Shown here in pieces: positions 8,690 through 47,669 of a stretch of 51,275 nt of DNA. Within the stretch, counting starts at the first letter, position 1; the number at the start of each line of letters is the position of its first letter. A program made the position numbers and the translations under genes. The notes beneath the pieces were generated by a model, which did no database searches, had not been told where the DNA came from, and saw only the letters and a list, made by a program, of their open reading frames with translations. Origin of the DNA: a virus (taxonomy: Duplodnaviria; Caudoviricetes); IMG/VR virus record IMGVR_UViG_3300030107_006445, positions 1 to 51,275 of that record. One strand, given 5' to 3'.

Positions 8690-8830
8690 TTAGTATCCTT
8701 TTTTAACTTTAGTTGTTCCTTTCTTCCGCTTCTTTGTTTGATTTTTTTGAGTAGCTCCTTTGTTTGATTTCTTTCCACGTTTCACAGATCCTCCTCCTTT
8801 CATTAAAGATTTAAAGTTTGTTCTATTCAA
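8690..8830 (-). CDS. Small Lys-rich basic protein (not in ORF track)
   Basis: TTG start overlapping the upstream gene's end; MNRTNFKSLMKGGGSVKRGKK...KKGY, 46 aa. Confidence 0.4.
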   Translation of the reverse strand: MNRTNFKSLMKGGGSVKRGKKSNKGATQKNQTKKRKKGTTKVKKGY

Positions 8831-9467
8831 TTCTCAACCTCTGTTCTTGAGTTGATTCGGAATCACTTTGTTTCAAAGCTGTTCCTGCTCCTCCTGCTGC
8901 CAATTTACCTTTAATTGACCAAAGGAATGCACCCAATGCTGGAGCATATGGAATAACTCCACCTATCGCTGTCATGCCTATAACTCCAGGATCTGTAGGT
9001 GTTTCCTCTAATGGTGCGTCTGAATAGCCTATCCCATAAAGTGCTCCGGCTGCTCCACCTAACAAAGATTGCAATAAACGGCTTTTCCTGACTTTTTCTA
9101 CAGCTTCTGGTAAATATCTTCCCGCAGTTCTCCAACCAGCTGTTGCGACATTTGCTGCTCCTGCTGAGTCTGCTATAAGATCCGTCACTGGATATAACTC
9201 AGCGAATTCCTTATACTTAGCACGCTCTGCATCTCTGGCACTTTCGTAATCGCCTCCTGATAATTGTGAAATTCTACCGACGATCTCGTCAGAATAGCCT
9301 CCTGTCAAACCATGACCAAGAGACCTTGCTGTTCCATATAAATACTCAGAAGGAGACAAAGAACGATCTGTCAAACCATATTCTGCTCCTGAAGCTGCAA
9401 CTGTCGCTGAAGCTAATGCATCTGCAAGTTTGCTGTTTTCCCTGTTTTTAATGTATTTCCTAACCAC
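8823..9467 (-). CDS. Putative internal virion/ejected protein with MVRK leader
   Basis: Gly/Ala-rich hydrophobic helices; GLTGGYSDEI motif; MVRK start shared with the leader family. Confidence 0.5.
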   Translation of the reverse strand: MVRKYIKNRENSKLADALASATVAASGAEYGLTDRSLSPSEYLYGTARSLGHGLTGGYSDEIVGRISQLSGGDYESARDAERAKYKEFAELYPVTDLIADSAGAANVATAGWRTAGRYLPEAVEKVRKSRLLQSLLGGAAGALYGIGYSDAPLEETPTDPGVIGMTAIGGVIPYAPALGAFLWSIKGKLAAGGAGTALKQSDSESTQEQRLRIE

Positions 9468-10669
9468 TATCTATACCTCTGGAATCTATTGGCAAACCTT
9501 CCTGCTGCTGGAGGGAGTCCGCCTATTGCTCCTTGCTGATTTCCTGTTACTTGCTGACCAACTGTTGTTGCTGGTGCTAAATCTGAAGTTTGACGTCCTG
9601 TTACTTGCTCACCAGTTTGCTGCGCTTCTTTCTGTTGTTTTTGCTGCTCCATATAATCCTTGTAAGCGTCATACGTCTCATATGTAGTTCCAGTAGTATA
9701 GAGAGCGTCTAAAACATTAATGTCCAATGGACCAAGTTTAACACTAGGAATTTTTGGAACCTTTGGGGTAGGTGCGTTGAGTTGTGCTTGCAATTGGCCT
9801 GTGCCAAACTGGCCACTAGCCCACCCAGCTGTATTCGCTGCTGTTTGGCCAGCATAATAACCTTCCATGCCAGCTTGAAATATCTCCCAAGGATCTTCTC
9901 CTGCTTCTGCTGATTGGGCAGCATTCCCTGCTGCGGCAAGATAGGCAGCATAAGGTTGTGCTCCAGGAACTGTCAATCCAATAGTCACTCCTATAATCGT
10001 TCCCAGATTACTTTTTAAAAAGTTTCCGACCTTGCCGAAAAAACTCGAATACTTTGTTTGTTGTTTCTGGCCTGTTCCTCTTAAACCATAGTCTGCTGCT
10101 CTAAGAACAGTGTCAATTTTTAAACCTTTGGGGATGTTGCCTGTTTCCAAATATGTTACAAGATCTGGGCTGCGTGTTGATGCCCAATCCAGCATTTTTT
10201 CATAAATTTCTTTCATTCCGCCACTTTTGTCGTCGGCAAGATATCGCTCTCTCCCCAAGTTTACATATTTCTCTATGTTTCGTTCGTTCCAGCCATAATT
10301 TTTTAGTGCCAAACCTTCTACATTAACCCTTTGCCCATCAATTGTGATGGCTGCTGAGTATGGTATATTCTTAGCATCAAATGTGTTCTTCTCGATGTGA
10401 TCCATCAACGGCACATTAGCCCAATTGTAAGTGGCCTTCCCAAAAGAACCAGAACCTTTGCCAGCTTTTTCCATTCTCATTGAAGCACTTAACTTATCGG
10501 CAACATCCTTCGAAAACATGCCTCTGCCGCTTTTCTGGCCGATTGGGTCTGGCCTTTTATATCCCTCGGGGACAAAGGTGGGATTTTGCGCAGCAATTTG
10601 AATGTTTCTTAGGAAAGGATTCTTTATAACTGTCCCGTCAGCTGCTCTTATCTCTCTGACTTTTGTCAA
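9467..10669 (-). CDS. Putative internal virion protein
   Basis: 400 aa; Gly/Ala-rich membrane-like segment; Gln-rich tail ending GAIGGL. Confidence 0.5.
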   Translation of the reverse strand: MTKVREIRAADGTVIKNPFLRNIQIAAQNPTFVPEGYKRPDPIGQKSGRGMFSKDVADKLSASMRMEKAGKGSGSFGKATYNWANVPLMDHIEKNTFDAKNIPYSAAITIDGQRVNVEGLALKNYGWNERNIEKYVNLGRERYLADDKSGGMKEIYEKMLDWASTRSPDLVTYLETGNIPKGLKIDTVLRAADYGLRGTGQKQQTKYSSFFGKVGNFLKSNLGTIIGVTIGLTVPGAQPYAAYLAAAGNAAQSAEAGEDPWEIFQAGMEGYYAGQTAANTAGWASGQFGTGQLQAQLNAPTPKVPKIPSVKLGPLDINVLDALYTTGTTYETYDAYKDYMEQQKQQKEAQQTGEQVTGRQTSDLAPATTVGQQVTGNQQGAIGGLPPAAGRFANRFQRYR

Positions 10670-10857
10670 ACTCTTCCTCCAGAAAGCTCTCTTGCTAGTA
10701 TTTGAAGAACTTCATTGAAACTTTTGTCAAGCTCCTTTGCTGCTCTGGCAAATTTTCTCGGACTTATTTCAGAGCTTTTTATGCCTCTGCGCTCTAAAAA
10801 ACTTTTTGCAGCTCTTATTTCTGCTGCTGCAACTTTTTTAATCGCTGCTCTGGCCAT
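10666..10857 (-). CDS. Small basic hypothetical protein
   Basis: 63 aa, K/R/A-rich helical, coupled. Confidence 0.6.
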   Translation of the reverse strand: MARAAIKKVAAAEIRAAKSFLERRGIKSSEISPRKFARAAKELDKSFNEVLQILARELSGGRV

Positions 10858-11812
10858 TAATGCCTCCTAGTGCTCCGGCAACACCAACACCTCCAGTTAC
10901 ACTTGCCATTATGTTACCTGATTTTCTGTCTTCTGGGTTAAATTTTGCATAAACTGATCTAACATCGCCCTTATCTGGGTAAAAAAGAGCAGCCGTTCCT
11001 GCCTCATCAGTAAAATATCCTCTGAATCCTAGATTTTTCAAAGCAGTTTGTAACTCTGGGATCTCCAGCACCCTCCAAGAGCCTCTCTCGGCCCACTGCT
11101 CCAATGACCCACGTGGAAACTTTGGCATACTATGAATTATATTTTCTATTTGCGCTTTTTTCTCAGGATCAATGCTCCCCAATCTTTTTACATGCTCAGC
11201 ATTGTTAGGATCAAACAGCTTTTCCGTCTTTATTTTAACTGGGTAAATTGTTGTTCCTGGAATCATTGGGACATCATAGTCTGCTTCTAGCTCTCGCCCC
11301 ATTTTTGCCAGTTCGTAGGCTTCATCTTTGACCTTTTGCGTTGTGCTTTGTATTACTTCTGCGCTTCTAGAGGCAAAATTTGGGTTATTTTCAGCTTGTA
11401 TGATCCAACTAGCCAGTTCGTTCTCCATACGATCGAGGTCTTTGTTTGCTTGGATAAAATATTCCACTCTCTTCTTAGCTCGTGCACGATCCGACACAAT
11501 TTTGGCATAATCTTTTTGTCCTGGCTTGGGCATTGGTCCCTGCGTTTTCTCTAAAATTGCATCCGTCCATTCATCCATCATCCCTTTATTAATGTAATCC
11601 AAATAATAATCAGAGCTCGTAACGTAAGTCGCACCAAGGTGTGGGTGATATTGTTCAACACCTCCGAAAACAGAACGTGCTGTGGATGCTCTTGGATTAA
11701 ACACCTCTATTTCTGGGTTACGACTTACGTGATAATACGTTTTAGGATCGAACTCCTTTTTATATGCATCTCTTAATGAGCTTAATGCTCCTGAAATTAA
11801 TTTTCTCACCAT
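10838..11812 (-). CDS. GAL-leader protein with ADP-ribosyltransferase-like (ART-PolyVal-type) domain
   Basis: YYHVS, ATYVTS, IYPVKIK, GFRGY, VRS..AKFNP..NI pattern; leader MVRKLISGALSSL. Confidence 0.55.
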   Translation of the reverse strand: MVRKLISGALSSLRDAYKKEFDPKTYYHVSRNPEIEVFNPRASTARSVFGGVEQYHPHLGATYVTSSDYYLDYINKGMMDEWTDAILEKTQGPMPKPGQKDYAKIVSDRARAKKRVEYFIQANKDLDRMENELASWIIQAENNPNFASRSAEVIQSTTQKVKDEAYELAKMGRELEADYDVPMIPGTTIYPVKIKTEKLFDPNNAEHVKRLGSIDPEKKAQIENIIHSMPKFPRGSLEQWAERGSWRVLEIPELQTALKNLGFRGYFTDEAGTAALFYPDKGDVRSVYAKFNPEDRKSGNIMASVTGGVGVAGALGGINGQSSD

Positions 11813-12003: not shown

Positions 12004-12134
12004 TATTTCTTCTTCCTTTTCTTGTAACCCGAAGCGTGAATGGCTCGACCTTGTCGCTCTGCTTCAGCTCTGGTTTTGTAAACCTTGCCCGACTTGCCCC
12101 AACGATAACCACCTTTGACTTTTTGTACTGGCAT
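12003..12134 (-). CDS. Small basic phage protein (not in ORF track)
   Basis: MPVQKVKGGYRWGKSGKVYKTRAEAERQGRAIHASGYKKRKKK, 43 aa; TAATG coupling. Confidence 0.7.
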   Translation of the reverse strand: MPVQKVKGGYRWGKSGKVYKTRAEAERQGRAIHASGYKKRKKK

Positions 12135-12616
12135 TATCGTTGTTTTGTTACCATTTGCCCATGAAGCATTTGGGTGTGCGGGTCGCTCAAAAATCTACCA
12201 ATTTCTTGGATAGTAGGATCAGAAGAATCCAGCATATCTTGTCCGACTTCCCAAACTTCGTCTGGATCCATGTAATTTTTGATAACCTTTAAATTTTGAA
12301 GATCATCTAGAACTCTTAAAAGAAGATTTTCATTAATCGGTTCTTCTTCGATCAAGCTCAAAAGATATTTTTCAGTTTCATAATCATCAAAGTCTCCTTT
12401 CGGGACGCTCAATGTTACATCTTCCTCGGTGATTCTTGGACCCAAAGATTCAAAATCCGCATCAAGATAATCTTCGGGCATAACTTGATATTTTCCACTA
12501 TACCTATTGCCTGTTTCTCCGATTATTTGGGCCTTGTTTACATCTTGCATGTCTAAGTGGTAAGGCAACTTGCCAAGTGCACCTTCTACAATCTTCCCAA
12601 GCATTTTTCTGGCCAT
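12134..12616 (-). CDS. Acidic GAL-leader protein
   Basis: MARKMLGKIVEGALGKL followed by a D/E-rich body. Confidence 0.6.
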   Translation of the reverse strand: MARKMLGKIVEGALGKLPYHLDMQDVNKAQIIGETGNRYSGKYQVMPEDYLDADFESLGPRITEEDVTLSVPKGDFDDYETEKYLLSLIEEEPINENLLLRVLDDLQNLKVIKNYMDPDEVWEVGQDMLDSSDPTIQEIGRFLSDPHTQMLHGQMVTKQR

Positions 12617-12899: not shown

Positions 12900-13092
12900 A
12901 ATTAGATCCTTTCATTGCTTGTATGACGTTGTTTGTTGCGCTGTTACCGTTGATTCTTCCTCTGATCTCTTCAACTTTGTTCATCAGATAAACATTCATC
13001 TGGTCAGCCGACATTGGTTGGTCAGGCGATTGTTGTTGCACGCCAGAAAATGCCTGAGGATTAACTGGGCCAAACATAAACTCGTTATACAT
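12886..13092 (-). CDS. Hypothetical protein
   Basis: 68 aa overlapping the portal stop. Confidence 0.5.
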   Translation of the reverse strand: MYNEFMFGPVNPQAFSGVQQQSPDQPMSADQMNVYLMNKVEEIRGRINGNSATNNVIQAMKGSNYGQR

Positions 13093-15643
13093 CAGATTGT
13101 TCTCTGTCTAATTGTATTTCAGCAGCATTCTTTTCACGTTCCATCTGCAAGTCAGCAGCACTTTTCTCTCTGTCCATCTGCAAGTCAGCAGCATTCTTTT
13201 CACGTTCCATCTGCATTTGCATCGCGTTCTTCTCACGCTCTATTTGCAATTCTGCTTGCAGTTCTACGATTTTCGCCTCTAGGTCTTTGTTTGCTTTGAT
13301 TTGATCGATTTGTATATCTGACTGGGCTTTAGCTTGGTCGATTTGTATATCTGATTGAGCTTTTGCTTGGTCAGATGCAATTTCTGACTGAGTCCTTTGG
13401 ACAAGTGATTGAGCTTCAAGTTCAGCGAGTTGTTGCGCATATTGTAACGGATCCTGTTGTTGTTGCTGTTGTTGTTGTCCAGCGATTGCTTGTATGGGTT
13501 GCATTTGCGGAGCTTGCTGGACGACTTGTGCTGCGCGAGAGCTTATTATCATATCCAGCTCTGGGTCAATGTCTTGGAACTGGAATTTTGGATCCCTCAG
13601 GTTAGGCACATCAGGCAACGGAACACCGATGCTGGCCTGCATGCGAGTCCGATAAAGCAACGCAATATGTTCCGCAATATGGGACAAGAGTATCGGTGCC
13701 ACTTGGCTACCCATAGTAGGATTGCCAGCCAAAGACGGATCGTTCAGAAACTGCATATGAACCATTATGTGCGAATCGTGGTCTTGCTCGGGGAATGCCT
13801 TGATTGCTTTGCCATACATGACCGTCATATTTTCATCTATCGGGTCAAGTCTTGGTGCTTCCTCGGGTGGCTTTAGAACTTCGTCTATATTAGGTATCCG
13901 AATCGCTTCATACATTCGCTTGTATGCTTCGTACAAGTCATGAAGTTCTGGTGCTGAACGAGCCATTTCCATAACTGCTTGAGCTTGTGCGATGCGTTGG
14001 GCTGTGCTAAAGATATTCGGATCACTAACTGGTACCACATCAATACGGCCATCAAAGTCTGCCGCATAAATGATTGTGTCTTGGCCTGATGCTGAGAACT
14101 CTATCTGCTCTGGTAAATTGTCAGCATTCAATTTGGCCAGCATTCTGAACTCTTGGCCTTGAGAGTTGTGCAAACGTTTGTGAATTGCGGAGAATGACTT
14201 ACTGCCTTGCTCAATCAGTGCCACCGTTGACCCGACTGGTGCATTAGGATTAACGTCGCCAACATTAAGATCTGCCGTGGCAGCAAACCTTCTACCAGCG
14301 TCAACCATAAATCCCATCAGCTGAAACAATGTTCCGCTTGGTTCTTTGAATGGTAGCGGCATGATTGCTTTGCCAACATCGTCAACCGTTGCCTCTAAGT
14401 CAACAAACTCTCCTGGATTGACTTCTATATCGCCACCGCTCACTCTGCCTTTTAGCTTGAAGCCACCTTGCATATTTGAAAATGCAGCAGAGTCCAGCAA
14501 CGCTCTCAAAGCACCAGTGGCTGCTTTACCCAAACCGCCAATCATATGGTACAGGCCAAAACCATAAAATCCAGTTCCAGGAAGGAATTTATAAGACACA
14601 AACCAGTCTAGCCGTTGTTGAGTTTCGTCTTGCTCGTCCCAGTTGCGGCGAACACTCACAATACGATCTGAGTCATAGTCAATCGTCACAACATACGGCA
14701 ACGCAACCACTTCATCATCCTCTTCCGAAGACATTCCATCAACGCCATCAAAAGTTTCATAAACATGCATCTCGATCAGCGTTATAATCTCGTCTTCCGA
14801 ATCATCAGCAGAAGGATCAACACCCTCAATGTCTTTGGTTGTATTGCCTGCTGGATCTATGCTTGAGCCAGAATACTTGACCGAGAGATAATATCCAGCT
14901 TCAACATATCGGTTGTAATCGTTGCGAGGCATCCGTATCAGATGTGAGTATCTTGGCGACGTTTGCAAGTCCTTGCTTTCTGGCGCAACAACGAAGTCCT
15001 CAGCCTTAACAAACTGTGAACATTGTCTGTTTAAGTTCACATCCCACCAGACCTTTTTAAATGTGTTGCCGACCAGTGGTAATTGAAACAACATCTGGTC
15101 TAGGTCAGGGAAGTATTCGGGCATCTCTTCTGTGATTTGGTAATTCATAAAATCACGTACACGTCTTGCCTGCTCTTCAACTTCTTCAGTCGCTTCACCA
15201 ACGATGGTTGTTTTAACTGGCCCACCAGAAGGATAAAGCTCGGCCACTGCTCTGGCATTAAACTGTGTTGCAGCTTCCGCAATCAATGGATGAACAATAG
15301 TGCTCAACCCACGGCTCGCTCTAATTTCCTCAGACTCTTGCAACCCACCTTCTGGGTCTAATGTCTTCAGCCCACTCTCATAACGACGTTTCCATTCGCT
15401 ACGAGCAGACTCGTCAAGTTCGTAAAATCTTAACAGTGTGGATGATTTGCGTTTGAGTTCGTTTTCATCAATGACTTCTGCTAAGTTTTGGTCAAACTGT
15501 GTTTCCTGTTCTTCAAGTCCATCCAAGTCTGGATCACCAATCAGCACATCTTCGCCAAAATTCTCAACCATAAGATCATCAGCAGGTGCTCCTTCCGAGA
15601 ACAACGGCAACTGTCTTGGGATTCCTAACTGCTCTTCAGCCAT
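13085..15643 (-). CDS. Portal protein (P22-like, long C-terminal coiled coil)
   Basis: 852 aa after TerL; HPLIAEAATQF, FKKVWWD, GFYGFGLYH, LLDSA motifs; Q-rich helical tail. Confidence 0.88.
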   Translation of the reverse strand: MAEEQLGIPRQLPLFSEGAPADDLMVENFGEDVLIGDPDLDGLEEQETQFDQNLAEVIDENELKRKSSTLLRFYELDESARSEWKRRYESGLKTLDPEGGLQESEEIRASRGLSTIVHPLIAEAATQFNARAVAELYPSGGPVKTTIVGEATEEVEEQARRVRDFMNYQITEEMPEYFPDLDQMLFQLPLVGNTFKKVWWDVNLNRQCSQFVKAEDFVVAPESKDLQTSPRYSHLIRMPRNDYNRYVEAGYYLSVKYSGSSIDPAGNTTKDIEGVDPSADDSEDEIITLIEMHVYETFDGVDGMSSEEDDEVVALPYVVTIDYDSDRIVSVRRNWDEQDETQQRLDWFVSYKFLPGTGFYGFGLYHMIGGLGKAATGALRALLDSAAFSNMQGGFKLKGRVSGGDIEVNPGEFVDLEATVDDVGKAIMPLPFKEPSGTLFQLMGFMVDAGRRFAATADLNVGDVNPNAPVGSTVALIEQGSKSFSAIHKRLHNSQGQEFRMLAKLNADNLPEQIEFSASGQDTIIYAADFDGRIDVVPVSDPNIFSTAQRIAQAQAVMEMARSAPELHDLYEAYKRMYEAIRIPNIDEVLKPPEEAPRLDPIDENMTVMYGKAIKAFPEQDHDSHIMVHMQFLNDPSLAGNPTMGSQVAPILLSHIAEHIALLYRTRMQASIGVPLPDVPNLRDPKFQFQDIDPELDMIISSRAAQVVQQAPQMQPIQAIAGQQQQQQQQDPLQYAQQLAELEAQSLVQRTQSEIASDQAKAQSDIQIDQAKAQSDIQIDQIKANKDLEAKIVELQAELQIEREKNAMQMQMEREKNAADLQMDREKSAADLQMEREKNAAEIQLDREQSDV
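13110..13390 (-). repeat. 33-bp / 11-aa coding tandem repeats in the portal C-terminus
   Basis: (REKNAADLQM[DE]) about x5 and (DQAKAQSDIQI) x2-3. Confidence 0.85.
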
Positions 15644-17141
15644 ACATGCTCATCCTATCTTGTGGGATTATGTCGTCTTCTTCGTAGTCAGTTGAGTGGC
15701 TGACAGACCAACTCTTGCGCAACCTCAACCATGCCTGTGTGCAAGTGTCAACAATGTCGTCATTATCGCCAGCAGGGAATGCCGCACAAATACTGATTAA
15801 ATCTTTTGCCCAATTACGTTCTGCGGGATACCATATACGGCCATCTTCCAGCAACGCAGACGAAGCATGGGCACGAGCTTCTTTATCTCTGTCTGGTAAA
15901 TACTCAAGAACTGGAATGCCAGCCATGCGTAAATCTTGCAACAAACTCTGGCCACTGGCTTTCTTTTCAATCAGCACTGCATCAGGCTCATAATCTTGGT
16001 ACGCCTCTTGAGCAAGTTTCCTCAATTCTGGATAGCTTACTCTATCGTACCACATTTCTAAAACAATTGCATTCATTTGACCATGTTTGCGAAACACAGC
16101 CCACGTGGTTCGGGCTGAATAAGAACTCTTTTCTTTGGTGGAAAAAGCAGTGTCGTACGACTGTAGCACATACTCAATGTTTGGCAGTTCTTTCTTGTCC
16201 CATGGCTTCCACCAGTCTTCTCTTAATATGCCGCCACCTTTAGGCATCGGTCGTTGCTGTAGCTGTCCAGCAGAAGCATACACTCCAAGACTTCGTTCGA
16301 GATTTTGTAATGTTCTATCGTCTATCCTTTCTGGCCAAAGAAGCTCATCTTCTTTTGTTCTTTTGTCTTTAAATCCTAACGAGGACTTGGTTTGGTATGG
16401 GTGATCCTGTTCATACCTAGCAGGCAAACACAAGTGATCCCAGTCTTCATGCTCATTGGCTAACACGTGCCCAGTTAGATCATTCTCATGAACACGTTGC
16501 ATGATTATTATGAAGGCACCAGTCTTTGGGTCATTAAGCCGAGTTTGCATGGCTTGATCCCACCACTCTAAAACGCCAACTCTAACGGTCTCAGACTCAG
16601 CCTCCCGAACATTGTGCGGATCATCAATTATAATGATGTCGCCACCTTCACCAGTCAACGCACCATCAACAGAAGTCGCTATCCTGTATCCTGTCTTGTC
16701 GTTTTCAAATCTTTGCTTTTGGTTCTGGTCAGAAGTCAGCTTAAACTGTTCGCCAAAGTGAGCTTGATACCAAGGACTGTCAATCAGCCTTCGACACTTC
16801 AACGAATCCCTAATAGACAAAGACAGCGCATAAGATGCAAACAAGAAACGTTTGTCTGGCTGGATGGTCCAAGTCCAAGCAGGCAACGCCACAGCAACAC
16901 TGATAGACTTCATGTGCCTTGGTGGGATGTTGATGATCAGTCGCTTTATGTCACCTTCAACAACTGCCTGCAAATGTTCAGACACCGCATCAATGTGCCA
17001 GTTGTCGTAAAACTGCCGTCCTGACTCAATCGTCTGCCAAGACTTCTTGGTAAACTCCTTCAGCGACCTCTTCATCTTCTCCGCTCGAACTTCCGTCAAT
17101 GACAGCGTGTTCAAGAACTCGTTCAATTGTGGTGAGGTCAT
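15636..17141 (-). CDS. terL: Terminase large subunit
   Basis: Walker A-like IPPRHMKS, Walker B IIIIDD, coupling MQR, nuclease YDTA and DDIVD. Confidence 0.95.
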   Translation of the reverse strand: MTSPQLNEFLNTLSLTEVRAEKMKRSLKEFTKKSWQTIESGRQFYDNWHIDAVSEHLQAVVEGDIKRLIINIPPRHMKSISVAVALPAWTWTIQPDKRFLFASYALSLSIRDSLKCRRLIDSPWYQAHFGEQFKLTSDQNQKQRFENDKTGYRIATSVDGALTGEGGDIIIIDDPHNVREAESETVRVGVLEWWDQAMQTRLNDPKTGAFIIIMQRVHENDLTGHVLANEHEDWDHLCLPARYEQDHPYQTKSSLGFKDKRTKEDELLWPERIDDRTLQNLERSLGVYASAGQLQQRPMPKGGGILREDWWKPWDKKELPNIEYVLQSYDTAFSTKEKSSYSARTTWAVFRKHGQMNAIVLEMWYDRVSYPELRKLAQEAYQDYEPDAVLIEKKASGQSLLQDLRMAGIPVLEYLPDRDKEARAHASSALLEDGRIWYPAERNWAKDLISICAAFPAGDNDDIVDTCTQAWLRLRKSWSVSHSTDYEEDDIIPQDRMSMYG

Positions 17142-17761: not shown

Positions 17762-17971
17762 TTAAAAAGTTGCTGTTGTTTGCCTCACCCACCTCGGCTC
17801 ACAATGAGCCTTAACCGGATGCCTGCTGCGAATGTCGTAGTTGCTTCTGCCCTGATAATTTAACCTTTTGGCTGTAATGGTACAGTGTTTTAGTTTTGAA
17901 AAATAAATCGGGTCTTGACCTCGGATGGGGTCACCATTAGATAACACAACCAGTAAGTAAACCAGCTTCAT
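17762..17971 (-). CDS. Small hypothetical protein
   Basis: 69 aa, hydrophobic N-terminus, two Cys, ATGA-coupled. Confidence 0.55.
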   Translation of the reverse strand: MKLVYLLVVLSNGDPIRGQDPIYFSKLKHCTITAKRLNYQGRSNYDIRSRHPVKAHCEPRWVRQTTATF

Positions 17972-36904: not shown

Positions 36905-36912
36905 AATAACAC

Positions 36913-36968: not shown

Positions 36969-36975
36969 AAAAATT

Positions 36976-37773: not shown

Positions 37774-37800
37774 GATATACTATATGAAATTGAGAAAGGA
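37753..37800 (+). promoter_or_regulatory. Repeated phage promoter + RBS, embedded in the upstream CDS end
   Basis: TTTACT-17-TATACT ... AGAAAGGA; spacer holds palindrome TCTGGCCAGA. Confidence 0.78.
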
Positions 37801-37807
37801 ACATAAA

Positions 37808-38517: not shown

Positions 38518-38756
38518 TGTTGTTAGGCAGATACACCCCATACAAAGGATACGTCTATTCCCCACAAGACGAAGACGAGGAAGATGTACGGAAAATTTTC
38601 CATCTCTTTTATAAAGAGGAGGAGATGCAAAAAGCTCGTGATGAAAGCAGATTCCCCACGGTTGAGTTTGAACTAGACTACACCCCATATCAATATCTTT
38701 CAATGGAGCAATTCAAGAAAGCAGTTGACAGCTATGAAGATAAGCAAAGCAAATAA
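38517..38756 (+). CDS. Hypothetical protein
   Basis: 79 aa, TAATG coupling. Confidence 0.55.
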   Translation: MLLGRYTPYKGYVYSPQDEDEEDVRKIFHLFYKEEEMQKARDESRFPTVEFELDYTPYQYLSMEQFKKAVDSYEDKQSK

Positions 38757-40437
38757 AAGATATTGTTTGGCTGAGTTTGAGTTTATCAACAGCGACATAA
38801 CAGCAAAAGTTCAGTCTCTCCCTTCATTTAAAAAATGGAAGGGGAGGCAACTTATTTTCGACCCCACTGGTGCAAACATAAACAGAATATGTCGCTACTG
38901 GCCGGATGCTGAGTGGGATGACGAGTCTGCCGAGATTCTTAACAGATACATAAAGTCTCTCAACGAGGCAGAAAAAGTCCGTAAAGAGAAAAAAGAAGAA
39001 CCTCCTCAAAAAGACGATTTCAACTTCAAAACAAAACCTTTCGAACACCAACGCAAAGCATTCTATCTATCCAGAGACAGGAAAAACTTTGCTTTGCTGA
39101 TGGAGCAGGGAACAGGTAAGACAAAAGTTATCATAGACAACGCTGCTTATCTTTACGGCAAAGGCGACATAACAGCTCTTGTCGTTATAGCTCCAAATGG
39201 CGTACATCGTAACTGGCTAGACAGAGAGCTACCTGCTCATATGCCTGATTGGTGTGAGTATAAATCTATTCATTATTATTCGGGCATGGACAAAAAACAC
39301 AAAGAACGATTTAATGACCTGCTGGGAGAAACGCAAGTCCTAAAAGTTTTCGCTTTTAACGTAGAAGCATTTGTGAGCAAGGTTGCTTTATCATACATGA
39401 CCAAGATTCTAATAAGCAACAAACCATTCTTAATAGTTGACGAAAGTTCAAGAATAAAATCTCCATCAGCCAAACGAACAAAAGAGATAACTAAGTTTGC
39501 AAGATACGCACCTTACAAAAGAATCTTAACAGGTACACCAATCACAAAAGGACCACAAGACGTCTACAGCCAGTTCAAGTTTCTAGACCCAAACATATTA
39601 GGATACGACTCGTTCTATTCTTTCCGTTCAAGATATTGCATCATGGGTGGTTACGAAAACAGGCAGATTGTGTCATATAGAAACATGCCAGAATTGACCA
39701 GAAACATAGAAGGGCACTCATTCAGAGTTCTTAAATCAGAGTGCCTAGACTTGCCCAAGAAAATATATCAAAGGCATTATGTAGAGATGAGCAAAAAACA
39801 AGCCGCACTCTACAAGCAAATGAAAAAGCAATGCATAGCCGAACTGAATGGAGAAACAATCAGCGCACCAGAAACCATAACTAGGATGCTACGCATGCAA
39901 CAAATACTTTGCGGTTGGTTTCCTGCTGAGTCGAAGGCTGTACCAATCGACCCAAAAAACCCAAGAATCGAGGCTCTAAAAGAAATACTCTCCAGTATAT
40001 CTTCTAAGGTCATCATATGGGCACGTTTTAAGGCAGATATTAGAGCCATAGGAGCTGTTTTAGGAGACGAGGCTGTAAGTTATTACGGTGATGTGAAAAC
40101 GGATGATAGAACACAAGCGGTGGACCTTTTCCAGAACGATCCGAGTGTTAGATTTTTCATCGGACAGCCTCAATCCGGAGGAATTGGGTTGACGTTGACT
40201 GCGGCTGAATATGCTATTTATTATTCCAACTCGTTCGACCTTGAGTCCAGATTACAGTCTGAAGACAGGTGCCACAGAATTGGAACCAAAACGAATGTTA
40301 CTTACATAGACATAGAAACCCCAAAAACAATAGACACTCAAATAATCAAAGCTCTGCGCAACAAGAAAAACCTAGCAGACGTTGTGACCAGAGACCCTAT
40401 GTCTATATTTATGGAGGAAGAGGGGAGTGCAAAATAG
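38734..40437 (+). CDS. SNF2-like SF2 helicase/ATPase
   Basis: MEQGTGKT, VDES, LTGTP, GIGLTL, QSEDRCHRIG. Confidence 0.92.
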   Translation: MKISKANKRYCLAEFEFINSDITAKVQSLPSFKKWKGRQLIFDPTGANINRICRYWPDAEWDDESAEILNRYIKSLNEAEKVRKEKKEEPPQKDDFNFKTKPFEHQRKAFYLSRDRKNFALLMEQGTGKTKVIIDNAAYLYGKGDITALVVIAPNGVHRNWLDRELPAHMPDWCEYKSIHYYSGMDKKHKERFNDLLGETQVLKVFAFNVEAFVSKVALSYMTKILISNKPFLIVDESSRIKSPSAKRTKEITKFARYAPYKRILTGTPITKGPQDVYSQFKFLDPNILGYDSFYSFRSRYCIMGGYENRQIVSYRNMPELTRNIEGHSFRVLKSECLDLPKKIYQRHYVEMSKKQAALYKQMKKQCIAELNGETISAPETITRMLRMQQILCGWFPAESKAVPIDPKNPRIEALKEILSSISSKVIIWARFKADIRAIGAVLGDEAVSYYGDVKTDDRTQAVDLFQNDPSVRFFIGQPQSGGIGLTLTAAEYAIYYSNSFDLESRLQSEDRCHRIGTKTNVTYIDIETPKTIDTQIIKALRNKKNLADVVTRDPMSIFMEEEGSAK

Positions 40438-40765
40438 TTTAAAGATAAAAGTGACTCCTCGGTTTTTGCAGAATCTTCTAGCAAGGCAGTATGAGCGTTG
40501 CCAAAACATAGCGTATTGGCGAGAGCTTAATATGGAAACAGGGCCAGTGTTCACAGAGTTCGGAGATCGCTATGAAACGCAAATAGAAATACGAGATGAA
40601 GACGAGCTTTGGGAAATGTATCAAGTCTGCAAAATAACTTCAACGAATTGCAGGCTAGACACATGGAACGCAGCTCAAAGAGTCATGGCAGAGATTGAGG
40701 AGTTTGCATTCTGTGAAGGGATTGCACCAGATATGTTTGTACGAATTAGAGAGGAGGGAAAATGA
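40427..40765 (+). CDS. Hypothetical protein
   Basis: 112 aa, overlaps both neighbours. Confidence 0.55.
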   Translation: MQNSLKIKVTPRFLQNLLARQYERCQNIAYWRELNMETGPVFTEFGDRYETQIEIRDEDELWEMYQVCKITSTNCRLDTWNAAQRVMAEIEEFAFCEGIAPDMFVRIREEGK

Positions 40766-41172
40766 CAGAACACAATTTTTGGAGATACATAAGATCAAAC
40801 CTAAACATAACAACTTACCGAGTAGAGAATAAGGTTATGGTTGGTATGCCGGACGTTCACTATTTACACGAAGGAACCTCTGGCTGGATAGAATTAAAGT
40901 TCATCAGCGACTGGCCTAAAAAAAGAATGACAACAGGCTTAATGCTTACACAAGCAATGTGGTTAGAAGAATATTCTTTAAATGGTGGGAATAGCTGGAT
41001 TATGTTCAGGATTGCCAGAGACTTTGCAGGACTTATAAACGGCAGAGATGCAATGAAAGTTTATGAAAGACCGTCTAGGTCTGCTTTTATGGGAATGTTG
41101 CATTGGCAAGCATCAGGTAATTTACAAGAAGAAGACTGGGAAAATCTAAAAAGAACGCTTTGCAACTTATGA
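40762..41172 (+). CDS. PD-(D/E)xK nuclease (VRR-NUC/Holliday junction resolvase-like)
   Basis: E..F, RVEN...GMPDV, WIELK, Q..W. Confidence 0.75.
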   Translation: MTEHNFWRYIRSNLNITTYRVENKVMVGMPDVHYLHEGTSGWIELKFISDWPKKRMTTGLMLTQAMWLEEYSLNGGNSWIMFRIARDFAGLINGRDAMKVYERPSRSAFMGMLHWQASGNLQEEDWENLKRTLCNL

Positions 41173-41887: not shown

Positions 41888-44224
41888 TCAAGGAAGCCCA
41901 ACAACTTCAATTATTTTATTAGCAGTGTTTTCGTCAATCGAGTTTATAAGAATGTTCATAGATTCAACATTAGGCATCCCAGACCCATCCTCCAAATACT
42001 CTTCTTGAAGAGGTGGTCTTAAAGCCGCAGTCACTGCTTGGCCAAAAAGTGGGGAGGCATTATCATAAAGCAAATGCTGGCTCACTGCTTCTTCAGCGAC
42101 CTGCTTGGCAGTAGTTTTTACTGTTGCATCTTCTATGGTGCTGGCAATAACTTTTACTCCAGGAATTCTTTTGCCTATTGGCAGTGTTATAAACCCCATA
42201 GCTCCTAATGCAGAAAGAGTGCTGTATCCTGTTCCAGAGGGATTTAACTTTATCTCTGCCCATAGAGTTTTTGCAACTTTTGCTCTAAAGTCGGATAACA
42301 ATTTAAGCTCGTCATCGCTGAAAAATTCTCTTATGATATATCTTTGTTTGAAAAAAACTTCGTTGAAGTTCCTTACAACTTGACTTCTTGTTATGTCGTT
42401 TTTCGTTCCAACGAATGCCTTATGTAAAATAGCATTCCTCATCAATCCCATAACCCGATTATAATCTTCGGGAGGAAGGTTGTTTTTTAATTTTTTGATC
42501 GCTAATTTAATTCCCGAATTTGGAGCAAATTTTGCAGCACCGAAAAGTTTATTAACAACATCAACTGGATTCGCATTTCCGTCTGTCAAAAGTTTAAGAA
42601 CGGCATTGGCGTTTGTTTCGGTTGTTAGTTTTGTTTTGGATCCAGCTTTGCCTGACAGCTCCACATAACTTTTCCAGAAGCCAGAAGCCTTCTGTAAATC
42701 TTTTATTACTTCTTGATCTCCACTGGCAAGCCCTCTTTCAACCGAATTGTAAAAGTTTTCTTTGAATGATCGCTCTAATCTTTCTAATATCCTGCGCTCT
42801 GAAGAACCTGCTTCAGCATTTCTCGCGATATTGCCCAAAGACTTCTGTCTATTGAAAATCTCGTTAAAATTGGTGGGACCAATCTCTCCCTCCTCGACTC
42901 TTTTTAAGATGTTTTGAACTTCTTTTAAATATCGCTGCAAAGAAGGCATTTGCTCTATCGCCGAATCAAATTCTTTGCCTGTTAGTTGGCTTGCAGGAAA
43001 TTCCTGACGAAGGAGGTCTTCTTGTTTTCGGTAAAGGTCTTGTATCCCATCTGCATCAAAAGTCGGGGAGTTTGGGGCTGCTTTAACACCTTCGTAAAGG
43101 TCATCGGCTTGCTGCTTTAATCGAGATACTGCTGTACCAACCGTTTGTTGCATCAAATAGGCGTCTTCTACAGCATCCTCAGTTCTTTCACCAGAGATAT
43201 TTTCCTGTAGCTTTCTTCCGGAAGTTCTCACCTGTTCAAGCTGACGCTCATCAAAATCTCTTATCTTAGAGACTGCTGGGCCAAAAAGATTTTCATCTCC
43301 ATAACGCAACCGATCTTCTTCCTGCAACTGCGAAGACATTTTTGAAGCATCCCAAGGAACGCCATCTGTTTCCGGAGCAGGAGAGGTTCGTTGTCCTTTT
43401 GTGAGTTGAATATCTTTATCAGTAACAGACTCTCTTCCTAGCTCCTCAAACTTCTCCGAAACTTTTCGCTTGGCAGTCTCTGCAGCTTCCCCAAAGCCTC
43501 TGAAGGTTTCGCTTGTTATCTCAGGAATTTCTTTAATAATGTTGGAAAGGTCTTGCCAATATGGTCTTACAGCAGCACTGACGAATTTGCCAACAATAGG
43601 CAACGTCGCTTCAATAGAAGCACTCGCTAAACCTGTAGATCCAGCTCCAGCAGCTTTATCAAAAAGCCATTTTTGATCTTTGACTTCGGCAGTCTCCGGA
43701 GCCAAAAGTTCTTCTACGAACTTCATGGATGCTTCGGTCGCGCTGTAAATTGCAGTGCCTCCGAGGACTTTCGATGTGAAAGTCGGCAACTTAGTAACAA
43801 CTGTTCCTGGAAGAGCATAAGCACCAAGCTCTCCGGTAAACGTCATAACGTCTTGCTCTGAAAATCCTGGCTTGTTAACATAATAGGGCTGCTTTTCCCA
43901 AATTATCATAGGATGGTTGTGCTTGTCCTTAAAAAGGCCACCCCATCTTTCGTCTCCTGCGTAATTGTTTTTTAGTATTTCAGCTTTCGACCAAGAATCG
44001 TGAGCAACAATAGTTTTCAAGTCAGCTATGTTGCTGACCTTGTCCCATAAAGGACGCTCGATTTCAGTCACTTCACCAATAGAAGGAAACTCTGCTTCAT
44101 CCCCATATGGTTGTTTGGCAGATTCGTAATCAGCTGGAGTTATTCCTTTGAGCACGTCTTCAAGCGGAGTGTCTAGTCCATCTACCGGCAGCACGTCTTC
44201 AAGCGGAGTGTCTAGTTCACTCAT
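41888..44224 (-). CDS. Putative large internal virion/DNA ejection protein
   Basis: 778 aa helical; NPSGT motif; last of the post-nozzle cluster. Confidence 0.6.
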   Translation of the reverse strand: MSELDTPLEDVLPVDGLDTPLEDVLKGITPADYESAKQPYGDEAEFPSIGEVTEIERPLWDKVSNIADLKTIVAHDSWSKAEILKNNYAGDERWGGLFKDKHNHPMIIWEKQPYYVNKPGFSEQDVMTFTGELGAYALPGTVVTKLPTFTSKVLGGTAIYSATEASMKFVEELLAPETAEVKDQKWLFDKAAGAGSTGLASASIEATLPIVGKFVSAAVRPYWQDLSNIIKEIPEITSETFRGFGEAAETAKRKVSEKFEELGRESVTDKDIQLTKGQRTSPAPETDGVPWDASKMSSQLQEEDRLRYGDENLFGPAVSKIRDFDERQLEQVRTSGRKLQENISGERTEDAVEDAYLMQQTVGTAVSRLKQQADDLYEGVKAAPNSPTFDADGIQDLYRKQEDLLRQEFPASQLTGKEFDSAIEQMPSLQRYLKEVQNILKRVEEGEIGPTNFNEIFNRQKSLGNIARNAEAGSSERRILERLERSFKENFYNSVERGLASGDQEVIKDLQKASGFWKSYVELSGKAGSKTKLTTETNANAVLKLLTDGNANPVDVVNKLFGAAKFAPNSGIKLAIKKLKNNLPPEDYNRVMGLMRNAILHKAFVGTKNDITRSQVVRNFNEVFFKQRYIIREFFSDDELKLLSDFRAKVAKTLWAEIKLNPSGTGYSTLSALGAMGFITLPIGKRIPGVKVIASTIEDATVKTTAKQVAEEAVSQHLLYDNASPLFGQAVTAALRPPLQEEYLEDGSGMPNVESMNILINSIDENTANKIIEVVGLP
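44151..44216. repeat. 27-bp exact direct repeat (LDTPLEDVL x2)
   Basis: AGCACGTCTTCAAGCGGAGTGTCTAGT at 44151 and 44190. Confidence 0.85.
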
Positions 44225-45407
44225 CTTTCAAATACCATTTGTCCAGAGCTCTTACCTGATATTTTGTGTCAAGTTCAGCACCTCTTTGCCTCAGGAGGGC
44301 TTGTCTGCCAGCAGGATCTAATCTATTGTACTTTGCTATAAACTCAGGATCGCGCTTTATTTGCTCAAACTCTTCGCTCGCTTTGTTTCTTATGTAGTCT
44401 CTGAACTGAGTATTAAACTCAGGTGTTTTCCTCCATTCCCGCTGCAGATTTTGAGAAGACTCTATAGAGTCGTACCATGCTTCGCCTTTTGCATCCCTAT
44501 ATTCTCGAGCAAAATCTCCAAAAGCACTCTGTCTTTCAGCAGCAAAAGTCATCATTTGTATAAGCAGTCTGTTTCCGTCTGTGGTTCGCGATAGCTGAGG
44601 TGCTATGGATTCCAAAAAATTCAATTCTTTCTCAGATATAGCACCAGTCATTTTTTTAACTGAAGCAAGAACTATCTCATTAGCTTTTGATCGGAATACG
44701 TCTCTGTCGCGCAGATCTGCTTTGTCTACATTTATTCCAAGCTCCCCTCCTATTCTCCGGAAAGGCTCGAAAAATTCGCTGACTGGGCCAGTTTCTCCTA
44801 TTCTTTCTAAGAGAGTAGCCATGTCTTTCAAAGATTGAAGTGTTTCGCCAGCTTGTCTTGCGTTACCGATCTGTTCTGCGATGTCATCTGCCAGAACAGT
44901 ACCAACTCTTTGTTTGTAACTTTTGTCTCCTCCCAAATCTATAGAAGTTGAAGCTGAGGAAGGACCAGTAAATGTTTTTAGTACTGTCCCGTCCGGTCTA
45001 TAAACCGTCCACTCAAACATTGGTTTACCGTCCGGACCAAGTATAGGTTCCCCTGCATCGTCTGTCGCCATTCCTGTTTTTACAGTTTTGGGAGTCCCTT
45101 CTTTGGGCTTCATTAGTGAAGCAATCTGTAAGCCAATCAGAGGCTCCTGTTGTTTCCTCTGTTTTTCTTTAAGAGCGTGTTTTTCTAGATATTTAGCTGG
45201 GGCTGAGAGTGCGCTTGTCGCCGACCCAAAAGCTGTTGCTCCTGGTCTTGAGGCTTCTTCGCCCATTTTCGAGAAATATTGAAGAGCCAGCAACGGAAGA
45301 TCCGGAGGAGCTTCTGGTCTTGATATAACCTTTGCCAACTTCATAGCCTGTTCAAAGTCTGTCTTACCGAGATTGGCTAGTGCTCCTGTTGTTGTTGGTA
45401 ATGCCAT
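44217..45407 (-). CDS. Putative ejection protein
   Basis: GAISEKE..FL....P.L..T..GN motif; N-terminal GALANL. Confidence 0.6.
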   Translation of the reverse strand: MALPTTTGALANLGKTDFEQAMKLAKVISRPEAPPDLPLLALQYFSKMGEEASRPGATAFGSATSALSAPAKYLEKHALKEKQRKQQEPLIGLQIASLMKPKEGTPKTVKTGMATDDAGEPILGPDGKPMFEWTVYRPDGTVLKTFTGPSSASTSIDLGGDKSYKQRVGTVLADDIAEQIGNARQAGETLQSLKDMATLLERIGETGPVSEFFEPFRRIGGELGINVDKADLRDRDVFRSKANEIVLASVKKMTGAISEKELNFLESIAPQLSRTTDGNRLLIQMMTFAAERQSAFGDFAREYRDAKGEAWYDSIESSQNLQREWRKTPEFNTQFRDYIRNKASEEFEQIKRDPEFIAKYNRLDPAGRQALLRQRGAELDTKYQVRALDKWYLKDE

Positions 45408-45420
45408 TTATAAAGCTCCT

Positions 45421-46287
45421 CTATGCTTTAGCAAGTGCATATGCACTACCCAAAGTCCCCAGTGCACCGATCGTTTGCCCATAGATGCTAGGCTGTGGCA
45501 TAAATTGATTGGCCAGCTGCATACCATATTGCGAAGTGTCGTACGGCAATCCCTCTAGTGCACCCATAGCAAAGTTCAACTGCTGGTAAGGATATTGGCG
45601 TTGATCTGTGTAATCGGAATACGCCATGTCTAAAGCTCTTTGATCCAGAACTCTTCGGGCTTCACCTGCCGTTATTAAACCTGCTGCTGCTTGCTGTTGT
45701 AAATCTTGCACCAACGGAGCAAAAGTTTGCATCTGAGCAGCTCGTTGCTGAGCAAGTCCTAATCCTTGCATTGCTGCTCGGCTACGAACGTCTCCCATTG
45801 CCTGCATTGCCTGCCCAGTGGTTTCTCCTTCTCTTAGCCCTAATCTGCTCCCGCCAAACGCACCCGCTCTAGCTGCTGCTGCACGATTTGTGACTTGATC
45901 TCGCTCTAGTTGTTCTCGGATTTCTCTTATCGCTGGATCTGCTGCTGCCTGAGCAATGTCTATATAAGGCTGAGACTCGGTTATGTTGGAGGTTGCATCC
46001 CATGCTGCATCTAAATAGGGCTGATAGCCAGTGCTGGCGTCTCGCAATATGCTGTGTGCTTCTCGCTCGTCCGCAGTTAATTTTAATGGATTTCCACTAG
46101 CATCAGTTCCATAAGTCGCTATCCGTGGGCCAGTATAAGCCGGATATGGGGAACTGGCTAACTCTGCAGCCTCTCCATAAAGTTGCTGGCCAGCTGCAGA
46201 AACCCAACTAGGGATTTGAGTCCCTGCAATCGTTTCTGTAGGATCTGGAAGAACATCAACTCCGCTTTCAAACAGTCCGCTTCCCAT
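45421..46287 (-). CDS. Putative DNA pilot/ejection protein
   Basis: A/Q/G-rich; AGAFGGSR motif; hydrophobic Gly-rich C-terminus. Confidence 0.65.
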   Translation of the reverse strand: MGSGLFESGVDVLPDPTETIAGTQIPSWVSAAGQQLYGEAAELASSPYPAYTGPRIATYGTDASGNPLKLTADEREAHSILRDASTGYQPYLDAAWDATSNITESQPYIDIAQAAADPAIREIREQLERDQVTNRAAAARAGAFGGSRLGLREGETTGQAMQAMGDVRSRAAMQGLGLAQQRAAQMQTFAPLVQDLQQQAAAGLITAGEARRVLDQRALDMAYSDYTDQRQYPYQQLNFAMGALEGLPYDTSQYGMQLANQFMPQPSIYGQTIGALGTLGSAYALAKA

Positions 46288-46688
46288 TAAACTATCCCGC
46301 CTAATGCGCCCATTTCATCTGCCGGCATTCCTTCATCACCAATCATGTCTATAATAGACTGGAGTTCCGGAAGTAGTTTCACCAGAGCTTTAGCAACATC
46401 AGGAGTTATAGCAGCATCCAAAAGCTCTAAATCTTCTGGAGCCATCGCTGATAACCTAGTGGCAATAATAGCTGTCACATCAGGATCTGGAGCCATCATA
46501 GCTTCTGTTGCAATAGATTCTGGAGCCAGCTCTGGCGGCATCGCTTGTGGCGGTAACGCACCTTGCATCTCTGGCGGCATCGCCTCGGGTGGCATCGCTT
46601 GTGGCGGCATCGCACCTTGCATCTCTGGCGGCATCGCCTCGGGTGGCATTGGAGCCATCATATCTTGTTCTGCCATTTCAACCTCCAT
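46287..46688 (-). CDS. Met/Pro-rich acidic protein
   Basis: MPP repeats; ends MGALGGIV. Confidence 0.6.
   Translation of the reverse strand: MEVEMAEQDMMAPMPPEAMPPEMQGAMPPQAMPPEAMPPEMQGALPPQAMPPELAPESIATEAMMAPDPDVTAIIATRLSAMAPEDLELLDAAITPDVAKALVKLLPELQSIIDMIGDEGMPADEMGALGGIV
46531..46650. repeat. Coding tandem repeat (MPPEA/MPPQA/MPPEMQGA)
   Basis: Repeated GGCGGCATCGC units. Confidence 0.85.
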
Positions 46689-46715
46689 TAAAAAACATTA
46701 TACCTTATTTACAAA

Positions 46716-47669
46716 TTAGAAGAACAGCTTGGAAGCAAAATTGCCAATCCAAGAAAGTTCTGCGGGCAAAAACGAATTTATAGCATGTCTTGTTAGGGCT
46801 GACGATCCTGCATTTTTAACTGCTTTCTTCACATTGTCTCCCGCAGCCAATCTAGAAATAACATCCACTCCTGCACCAGCAGCAGTAGCCATCACTCTGT
46901 TCCTGTTTACGAATTTCTCACCGACCCTTCTTGCTCGCTCCATCGTCGATGGAGCTTGTGTTATGGCACTGTCAAAATCTTCTTGGCCAACTTTAGAAAA
47001 AGTTGGATACGAAAGAGATGTTCCTGGAATATTCAAAGTTGGATCTGAGCCCAAAGTTGTCCCACTAGTAACAACACCATCTTCTAAAAGCCCAGCCTTG
47101 CTAAGCTGATCAAAATCTTGCTCCATTCCAAAACTTGTTGCCAATTCTCTATTGGCTAATTCAGGAACGTAAAATTGCCCAGCAGCAAGACCGTCGTCAG
47201 CAAGTTTATAGCCAGCCGACTTAGATGCCTCAAGAGCTTGTGATGGTAGTTGGCCAAAAGTTTCTTTCGCTCCTGCTAACAACCTTTGTCCTGCTGACCT
47301 GTCTTGAAGTGCAGGATCTAAATAACCAGTGACCATTTGCTCTACTGCCTGAATGGCTACCATAGGGATTACACCTTTGGTTATGATTTCAGACACAGAC
47401 GGCAAATTAGGATTTGATCCCTCTTGCGCTTCTAATTCTTGCTTTGCTTGTTCATAACTTTCCAGAAACGCTTGGTCTCTAGGGTCAGCTGGATTATATT
47501 TCCTGTCACCTGTTTGTACACGGTCAACGAACTGGAATTGCGGCATAGCACCAGTGCCATAAACGTTCTGCAGTTGTGCCGGATCAATATTCGGAGTAAA
47601 AGTACTCGTTTGATAAACAGGATATCTGTCCTCTCCTGTCAGTCCTGTCAATGCACCAGCCTCAGCCAT
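46716..47669 (-). CDS. Putative internal virion protein
   Basis: 317 aa; starts MAEAGALTGL; amphipathic C-terminus. Confidence 0.5.
   Translation of the reverse strand: MAEAGALTGLTGEDRYPVYQTSTFTPNIDPAQLQNVYGTGAMPQFQFVDRVQTGDRKYNPADPRDQAFLESYEQAKQELEAQEGSNPNLPSVSEIITKGVIPMVAIQAVEQMVTGYLDPALQDRSAGQRLLAGAKETFGQLPSQALEASKSAGYKLADDGLAAGQFYVPELANRELATSFGMEQDFDQLSKAGLLEDGVVTSGTTLGSDPTLNIPGTSLSYPTFSKVGQEDFDSAITQAPSTMERARRVGEKFVNRNRVMATAAGAGVDVISRLAAGDNVKKAVKNAGSSALTRHAINSFLPAELSWIGNFASKLFF

Follow-up and report, generated by a model that had tools for sequence, protein, structure and literature searches.

Recurrence of a G-A-L-x-x-L motif in late proteins of a marine podophage and its possible role as an address signal for ejected proteins

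How a tailed phage chooses the proteins that it packs and injects is largely unexplained beyond T4 and P1. The question is raised by IMG/VR virus record IMGVR_UViG_3300030107_006445, which was analysed here over its whole length of 51,275 bases (hereafter, the window) and which represents a marine, CRP-901-like podophage: over the portal and terminase genes, its DNA shares 68% identity with that of Roseobacter phages CRP-901 and CRP-902. A preliminary description of this DNA had noted a short motif, [GS]-A-L-x-x-[LI], at the termini of about 13 proteins and had proposed that it is a shared tag by which accessory proteins are packaged and injected. The window contains 69 open reading frames (ORFs; 16,055 aa), comprising 45 late proteins on the minus strand (24 kb down to 1, plus 50,935 down to 41,389) and 24 replication proteins on the plus strand (24,419-41,172). 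Proteins are named below by the lower coordinate of their genes.

The strict form of the motif, [GS]AL..[LI], occurs 18 times in the 69 ORFs, with all copies in the 45 late proteins and none in the 24 replication proteins. Eight of the 18 copies start inside the first 15 residues, at residue 5 of 46716, residue 7 of 20603 and 21700, residue 8 of 10838, 17968, 18542 and 44217, and residue 12 of 12134. Three more fall within the last 20 residues, at position 313 of 324 in 10838, 274 of 288 in 45421 and 127 of 133 in 46287. The remaining seven are found at residues 29-33 of 18542, 19691, 20603 and 21700, residue 141 of 8823, residue 377 of the portal protein and residue 242 of 45421. The residue after the motif is mostly P or G. 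All of the peptides listed in the preliminary description were recovered in the translations of the genes to which they had been ascribed, most of them as strict matches; GALGGA of 19691 and GAIGGL of 9467 are loose variants only. Its statement that one motif links three late loci and is missing from the replication proteins was likewise borne out.

The motif is enriched over the Gly/Ala/Leu background. Shuffling of whole proteins (n = 400) yielded expectations of 1.9 copies in total, 0.07 N-terminal copies and 0.16 C-terminal copies, with maxima of 7, 1 and 2, respectively. When residues were shuffled within the terminal 20 positions (n = 3000), 0.19 N-terminal and 0.17 C-terminal copies were expected; eight N-terminal copies were reached in none of the 3000 shuffles and three C-terminal copies in one. 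Removal of four members of a cluster of five tandem paralogs left 12 strict copies; for all 69 ORFs together, the expectation is ∼1.9. Position by position, the observed and expected counts were 16 and 0.7 for G1, 18 and 1.4 for A2, 18 and 1.4 for L3, and 14 and 0.8 for L6, and Ser at motif position 2 was not enriched in the window. At the nucleotide level, the corresponding pattern GGNGCNYTN occurs 26 times in-frame in the sense strand of the late genes, versus 2 times in one and 0 in the other of the remaining frames and 6 times in antisense, and is absent in-frame from the early genes. Similarly, GAL occurs 22 times, versus 3-11 times for each of the five alternative orders of these residues. 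The pattern is therefore frame-specific and order-specific, indicating a signal at the level of protein, and a DNA-level explanation was dropped on account of the frame specificity. As a separate observation, the Ala codon of the motif is GCA in 14 of the 18 copies, compared with 40% of late-gene Ala codons, which may partly reflect shared ancestry.

The motif is also conserved among relatives of the phage, of which IMG/VR holds 452 by terL and at least 591 by capsid protein, with at least 8,000 capsid-protein relatives in a protein collection from public metagenomes. In 257 non-redundant conserved ORFs from 160 loci of IMG/VR relatives, there were 29 motifs, as compared to 5.5 in shuffles and 7 for the reversed motif. 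Nine of the 29 are C-terminal and are distributed over 5 unrelated families, including 789-aa and 1,360-aa proteins. The motif is restricted to the loci of the probable internal proteins. In particular, ORFs of at least 150 aa in the variable cargo interval between the portal gene (13085-15643, minus strand; 852 aa; phrog_1216 at 7.6e-36), which borders it, and a GroES-like gene (8017-8421, minus strand; Pfam and PHROG matches) contained 20 motifs in 35 unique ORFs (1.74 per 1000 aa), whereas those from GroES downstream contained 3 in 331 ORFs (0.03 per 1000 aa). The interval copies include an interior VAGAL-x-x-LP in three proteins of 309-422 aa. In CRP-901, all seven strict copies lie within the ejection module and this interval, and the PBECR5 nuclease gp66, which stands at the position matching 10838, bears GAISQL N-terminally and GALQSV close to its C-terminus. 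The C-terminal tails include 15-20 mostly small or hydrophobic residues, and the residues that follow the motif are acidic, not basic.

In seven window proteins, the motif (in 19691, its loose variant) is embedded in an N-terminal module of ∼25 residues. The module, which in the paralogs has the form M-x-[RK]-K-x-I-x-[GS]-A-L-x-x-L-x-G-G-x-x-D-P-K, is common to the five tandem paralogs (17968-18525, 18542-19690, 19691-20602, 20603-21703 and 21700-22320, all on the minus strand), 10838 and 12134, and a hidden Markov model (HMM) built on it, run against 4,022 ORFs, recovered these seven with E values of 4.4e-5 or lower. The paralogs have ∼50 N-terminal residues in common and at least three kinds of C-terminal domain: according to BLASTP, 18542 and 20603 are alike over their full length, and in 17968 and 21700 the likeness is confined to the first 50-100 aa. 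Residues 1-41, holding 9 of the 12 invariant alignment columns, are the best-conserved part of the family, and in an AlphaFold2 model of 20603, residues 1-18 and 21-48 had a predicted local distance difference test (pLDDT) score below 50. The start of 21700 is most likely the second ATG (22320), which has GAGG upstream. The start shared by 8823 with other carriers, as noted in the preliminary description, was also recovered: translation from a GTG with AGAGG upstream gives 8823 the VRK of 10838, 17968 and 18542.

N-termini of different families resemble each other within a genome. In hhalign comparisons of profiles of the first 24-32 residues, a family of relatives' proteins designated family 33, the ADP-ribosyltransferase (ART) family of 10838 (fam43) and the paralogs were similar (E 1.6e-6 and 2e-7). 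Over residues 2-11 of the ART-family and family 33 proteins, moreover, the same-genome pairing was the best of 120 permutations in five genomes of relatives. Synonymous codons differ between the paired N-termini of locus L151 (MSALSR and MSSLSR) and among the MVRK starts of the window, which argues against simple gene conversion in these cases. By contrast, the N-terminal nucleotides of the fam43/fam33 pair of locus L106 are identical and those of the window pairs 17968/18542 and 20603/21700 are nearly so, which indicates recent recombination and means that these window pairs are not independent. Judged from the sequences, selection and recombination both contribute to the N-terminal likeness.

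The protein encoded by 10838..11812 (minus strand; 324 aa) carries the motif at both ends and is a probable effector of the ART-PolyVal family. Its N-terminus is MVRKLISGALSSL, with GALSSL at residue 8, and its C-terminal tail has GALGGI at residue 313. PF18760 was matched by 19 of 48 aligned homologs (best E 1.3e-16) and not by 10838 itself, because an inserted helical hairpin of ∼80 residues (102-179), lacking a counterpart in most homologs, hides the protein from the model. L151:4400-5191 scored 28.2 bits against a cut-off of 31.2. Among the homologs are giant polyvalent proteins, the longest of 3,805 aa. His28, the putative H of the ART H-Y-D active-site set, is at least 90% conserved, as is Gly313 of the tail in the 48 homologs. 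The strict motif occurs in the last 25 residues of 31 of the 47 closest homologs versus 1 of 54 homologs longer than 450 aa. The AlphaFold2 model of 10838 had a mean pLDDT of 86.5, with values of 79-90 for an N-terminal helix (residues 2-20) and 55 or below for the tail (301-324). Foldseek against the PDB and VIA-align with this model gave matches to the inserted hairpin only, with no ART fold among the matches listed. Overall, the tagged segments of 10838 and the paralogs are conserved yet unanchored in the structure models and are predicted to be flexible.

The 3′ end of 10838 is overlapped by 20 nt by a gene for a basic, helical protein of 63 aa (10666..10857, minus strand), whose GGAGG ribosome-binding site sits within the GALGGI codons. 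This small protein is highly conserved, with 22 unique orthologs in the loci, and is nearly unchanged across the phage group while always standing among variable cargo genes. It may be an adaptor or a DNA-binding internal protein. Its N-terminus weakly resembles the fam43 N-helix (hhalign E 0.0013, probability 19%), a likeness that hints only weakly at a further tag.

Other carriers lie in the same interval and in the ejection-protein cluster. An acidic protein of 160 aa (12134..12616, minus strand) has the N-terminus MARKMLGKIVEGALGKLP, with GALGKL at residue 12, and was recovered by the N-module HMM at E 4.4e-5; it matched no Pfam or PHROG family. Of its neighbours on the minus strand, 8823..9467 encodes a protein of 214 aa with an interior GALYGI at residue 141 and a Gly/Ala-rich C-terminal region, and 9467..10669 encodes a protein of 400 aa with the loose variant GAIGGL at residue 380. 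No homolog of 8823 was found among the ORFs of relatives, nor, by jackhmmer, one of 9467. The ejection-protein cluster (44217..47669, minus strand) comprises four genes. In 46716-47669, GALTGL is at residue 5; 46287-46688 ends in MGALGGIV; 45421-46287, which matched phrog_4287 ('DNA ejection protein') at 1.5e-9, has GALEGL at residue 242 and GALGTL at residue 274; and 44217-45407 has GALANL at residue 8. Orthologs of 46287 occur in CRP-901 and in four of the five further phage records that were examined; each of these five orthologs has GALG-x-x, with no more than one residue after it, as its C-terminus. The N-terminal GAL is kept only in part of the orthologs of 44217 and 46716, and IMG/VR yielded a single locus for 45421.

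Taking these data together, we tentatively propose, at a probability somewhat below even, that the motif serves virion-internal, ejected proteins as an address or docking signal; the virion location, the docking and the identity of the reader are what we infer. According to this proposal, G-A-L-x-x-L, often followed by Pro or Gly, would act as a short linear motif in segments that are flexible, whether N-terminal, C-terminal or linkers. Jointly with an N-terminal module of 10-25 residues that is specific to the genome, it would mark the proteins kept in the head and ejected, namely the ejection proteins, the ADP-ribosyltransferase-type effector and the paralogous accessory proteins. During procapsid assembly, the tagged segments would dock on one abundant assembly component, for which the candidates are the scaffold, the inner face of the capsid protein and a small adaptor, so that diverse and swappable cargo could co-assemble and later be injected. 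By analogy with P22, whose ejection proteins require the scaffold for their incorporation according to PMC4992974, the scaffold would be a likely reader. Prediction of a complex of the capsid protein, the probable scaffold and the 10838 tail (residues 278-324, with alignments) scored 0.09 against a mark of 0.32, which is evidence neither way. The idea of packaged and injected cargo, already advanced in the preliminary description, is in keeping with the effector domains, the portal-GroES location and the N-terminal co-variation. The Tat-like signal of some carriers, the interior copies and a helix that is intrinsic to ART domains speak against it.

Several observations weigh against a single terminal address, and the claims of terminal placement and of one shared tag stand only in part. 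The pattern lumps several elements: the N-module, a Tat-like stretch, disordered C-terminal tails and interior copies. Five of the nine N-terminal cases that had been listed are the tandem paralogs, and 7 of the 18 window copies are not terminal. Similarly, 14 of the 20 copies in the relatives' interval are interior, of the type VAGALSKLP, and 6 are terminal; this abundance of interior copies points to a short linear motif of flexible regions rather than a strictly terminal tag. The C-tail profiles of different families have no significant likeness (E 0.01-0.1), and co-variation of the tails is weak (P 0.03 in five genomes, two of them related). In CRP-902, the strict motif is barely enriched: ∼14,400 aa hold 4 copies, including one in an early protein. 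The GG of two C-terminal copies falls on the ribosome-binding site of the gene that follows. Part of the 10838 N-helix, '..AFKKKF.PG', also precedes internal ART domains of giant proteins and is thus intrinsic to the ART domain. The five-paralog cluster, which lies upstream of terS, is rare (12 proteins, none of them in IMG/VR, where a search found no relatives of 18542) and may not be virion-associated; the Tat-like signal of four of its members suggests another destination, and a scan for promoters and terminators gave no preference for early or late expression of the cluster. Nothing usable came from searching the PDB with the sequences of 45421, 41888 and the portal, no credible family emerged when 15 tagged or head proteins were scanned against Pfam at relaxed settings, and the CRP-901/902 paper gave no hit for 'mass spectrometry'.

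Many of these points are shared by an alternative that is credible though unlikely, in which there is no single tag. The pattern would instead be the sum of tandem duplication and gene conversion of the N-module, the ART-intrinsic helix, family-specific tails, the Gly/Ala/Leu-rich flexible segments that ejection proteins typically have and ribosome-binding sites that happen to be read as Gly-Gly. The identical or near-identical N-terminal nucleotides in three of the pairs described above, the helix ahead of internal ART domains, the dissimilar C-tail profiles, the GGAGG inside the GALGG codons of 10838 and the weak enrichment in CRP-902 are all as this alternative predicts. It sits less well with the strict copies that are left when four paralogs are dropped, with the order and frame specificity, and with the outcome of the reversed-motif control. 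It also has to accommodate the ∼50-fold contrast in density between interval proteins and shell or tail proteins, and N-terminal co-variation within genomes despite different synonymous codons. A role after ejection, with GAL-x-x-L serving as a helix-helix, membrane-contact or host-protein-binding element that builds a trans-envelope conduit or anchors effectors, is improbable. Motif density peaks in the ejection module and the interval proteins, all 45421-family orthologs seen have a conserved, Gly/Ala/Leu-rich hydrophobic end (IYGQT-x-G-x-LG-x-L-x-SAY), and the small or hydrophobic residues of the tails would suit such contacts. Most tails are nevertheless too polar or too short to span a membrane and have acidic ends, the motif is common to an enzyme effector (ART) and low-complexity proteins, and the N-terminal co-variation within genomes points to a reader encoded by the phage, not the host.

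The destination of the paralogs bears on two further alternatives. Signals for twin-arginine translocation (Tat) combine a twin-arginine consensus with an uncharged h-region behind it and, after that, an A-x-A cleavage site. In 18542, 19691, 20603 and 21700, the N-module is followed by a Tat-like stretch and a second GAL-A-A-L, with RR-x-[IL]-L-K in three of them and KR in 21700. Tat-like signals are unusual in late phage proteins. The N-region of these four proteins could be a Tat signal with a long n-region that directs periplasmic export rather than packaging. The element K/S-R-R-x-[FIL]-[LI]-K and the 12 uncharged residues after it are kept in all relatives, and two of five relatives scanned passed the TIGR01409 cut-off of 16.7 (P0002 at 18.7 and P0009 at 20.0). 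In one viral protein cluster of the Atlas, 20% of the members have TAT_signal, although with 20603 as query the cluster scored 0.83, below 0.9, and is a lead only. The window copies, by contrast, fell below both curated cut-offs, scoring 16.9-20.6 bits with Pfam TAT_signal (PF10518; cut-off 22.7), including values of 20.1-20.6, and 10.1 with TIGR01409. Their h-region comprises only ∼12 residues and is followed by LPKGAK, not an A-x-A site. In addition, 17968 retains the N-module while lacking the RR and the h-region, the same module stands on 10838 and 12134, both without RR, and no Tat-like N-termini were found among the late ORFs of relatives. The four paralogs are like Tat substrates in having RR-x-[FIL]-[LI]-K and an uncharged, Gly/Ala-rich stretch, and unlike them in their scores, h-region and missing cleavage site and in the conserved amphipathic module in front, which is common to proteins lacking RR. 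We consider export by Tat clearly improbable. Finally, double-glycine leaders have an L-x-x-L-x-G-G pattern with spaced hydrophobic residues, and S/G-A-L-x-x-L-x-G-G could be a leader of this kind that is removed by a protease during maturation. The pattern, with hydrophobic residues at −4, −7 and −11/−12, occurs in 18542, 20603 and 21700 and in P0003, P0004, P0006 and P0009 of the relatives. Its spacing is not kept in 10838, 12134 and 19691, and the family scans of the 45 late proteins turned up no peptidase family; this possibility is very remote.

The head-assembly genes that would supply a reader adjoin the cargo interval. Family scans (Pfam and PHROG) covered the 45 late proteins and identified the major capsid protein (5102-6007, minus strand) as an HK97-type capsid protein (PF25209). 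Beside it on the minus strand are two head-assembly genes (6020-6571 and 6594-7082) and the probable scaffold gene (7082-7990); like the capsid and GroES-like genes, these three encode candidate readers. The strict motif is absent from these four proteins and from the GroES-like protein, that is, from the head-assembly genes 5102..8421, and the portal has a single interior GALRAL. The GroES-like co-chaperonin, encoded between the cargo genes and the probable scaffold gene and also kept in CRP-901, CRP-902 and metagenomic relatives, has a 26-residue N-terminal extension and the mobile loop GGIFLP. Mimicry of a GroES mobile loop by the motif was considered and dropped, as the phage loop differs from the motif. 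In loci L005, L044 and L063, the portal-GroES region encodes several small, very Lys-rich proteins (e.g., with K-run ends) and an 85-aa 'HVA1-family' protein, all of which may be DNA-condensing internal proteins; 8611-8778 is the sole window protein of such a kind.

The family scans also identified the large terminase (15636-17141, minus strand), an endolysin and two SU10-type adaptors, which are paralogs (1318-1941 and 2770-3453). A second pair of paralogs, adjacent to each other (1941-2453 and 2450-2770), has a common N-terminal domain, phrog_28581, that is also found inside a virion protein of 631 aa (48142-50037). One ORF runs past the left end of the record (1-894, 298 codons) and another comes in at its right end (51081-51275, 64 codons plus stop). 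The two share a frame and, should the record be circular or circularly permuted, would make up one gene of ∼362 aa; the matching PHROG profile has 365 positions.

A recognisable consensus tag would allow injected effectors to be predicted from sequence in uncultured marine phages, would offer a means of putting foreign proteins into capsids of this group and would permit a direct test of encapsulin-like cargo loading in phages. A stronger form of the proposal, to which we assign a low probability, is a two-part, genome-specific code: a co-evolving N-module of ∼10 residues and G-A-L-x-x-L-P/G would together direct swappable injected effectors to a single assembly hub, without MuF or a protease. 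Such a code would load an ADP-ribosyltransferase, an RNase-like nuclease and large uncharacterised proteins in a podophage group that is among the most abundant in the ocean. In the literature searched on CRP-901/902, polyvalent proteins, capsid targeting, ART-PolyVal and ejection-protein incorporation, we found no description of the motif.

The closest precedents are the peptides that target injected head proteins to the capsid. According to PMC9024508, the capsid-targeting sequence (CTS) of T4 IPIII and P1 DarB's first 30 residues have this function, and in these two phages such peptides are portable to foreign cargo. The module of the window resembles them in being a short N-terminal peptide that heads at least three unrelated families, the packaging of which is predicted here. 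It differs from both in that the motif is also C-terminal and interior, and from the T4 CTS, which a prohead protease removes at a consensus site, in that the family scans of the 45 late proteins turned up no prohead protease or cleavage motif: 'head maturation protease' PHROG matches on 5102-6007 covered only the capsid-protein half of fused profiles. According to section 3.3 of PMC9024508, the P1 Dar proteins have no common consensus, whereas here a recognisable consensus is common to many proteins of one phage. The ART-PolyVal and PBECR domains also occur in polyvalent and MuF-linked proteins, for which packaging and injection were predicted (Iyer et al. 2017, PMC5512222). As in those systems, the domains are found here among head genes, in proteins with the same predicted fate; unlike them, they are in solo proteins without MuF, portal fusion or MPTase, and a terminal tag would take the place of the MuF anchor. 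Encapsulin targeting peptides, as set out in PMC7925596, have a G-S-L core (e.g., the consensus DGSLGIGSLKG), are flexible and mostly C-terminal, and are read by an HK97-fold shell. The window motif departs from these in its G-A-L core and in the acidic rather than basic residues that follow, and its binding to the capsid is conjectural. It resembles them in combining Gly, a small residue and Leu, in its two spaced hydrophobic residues and in its place on a flexible extension of the cargo, in a phage whose capsid protein is of the HK97 type; the 10838 tail is just such a flexible C-terminal extension with a Gly-small-Leu core. If the two-part code is real, it would be a viral counterpart of the encapsulin targeting peptides, with a possible evolutionary link between the two.

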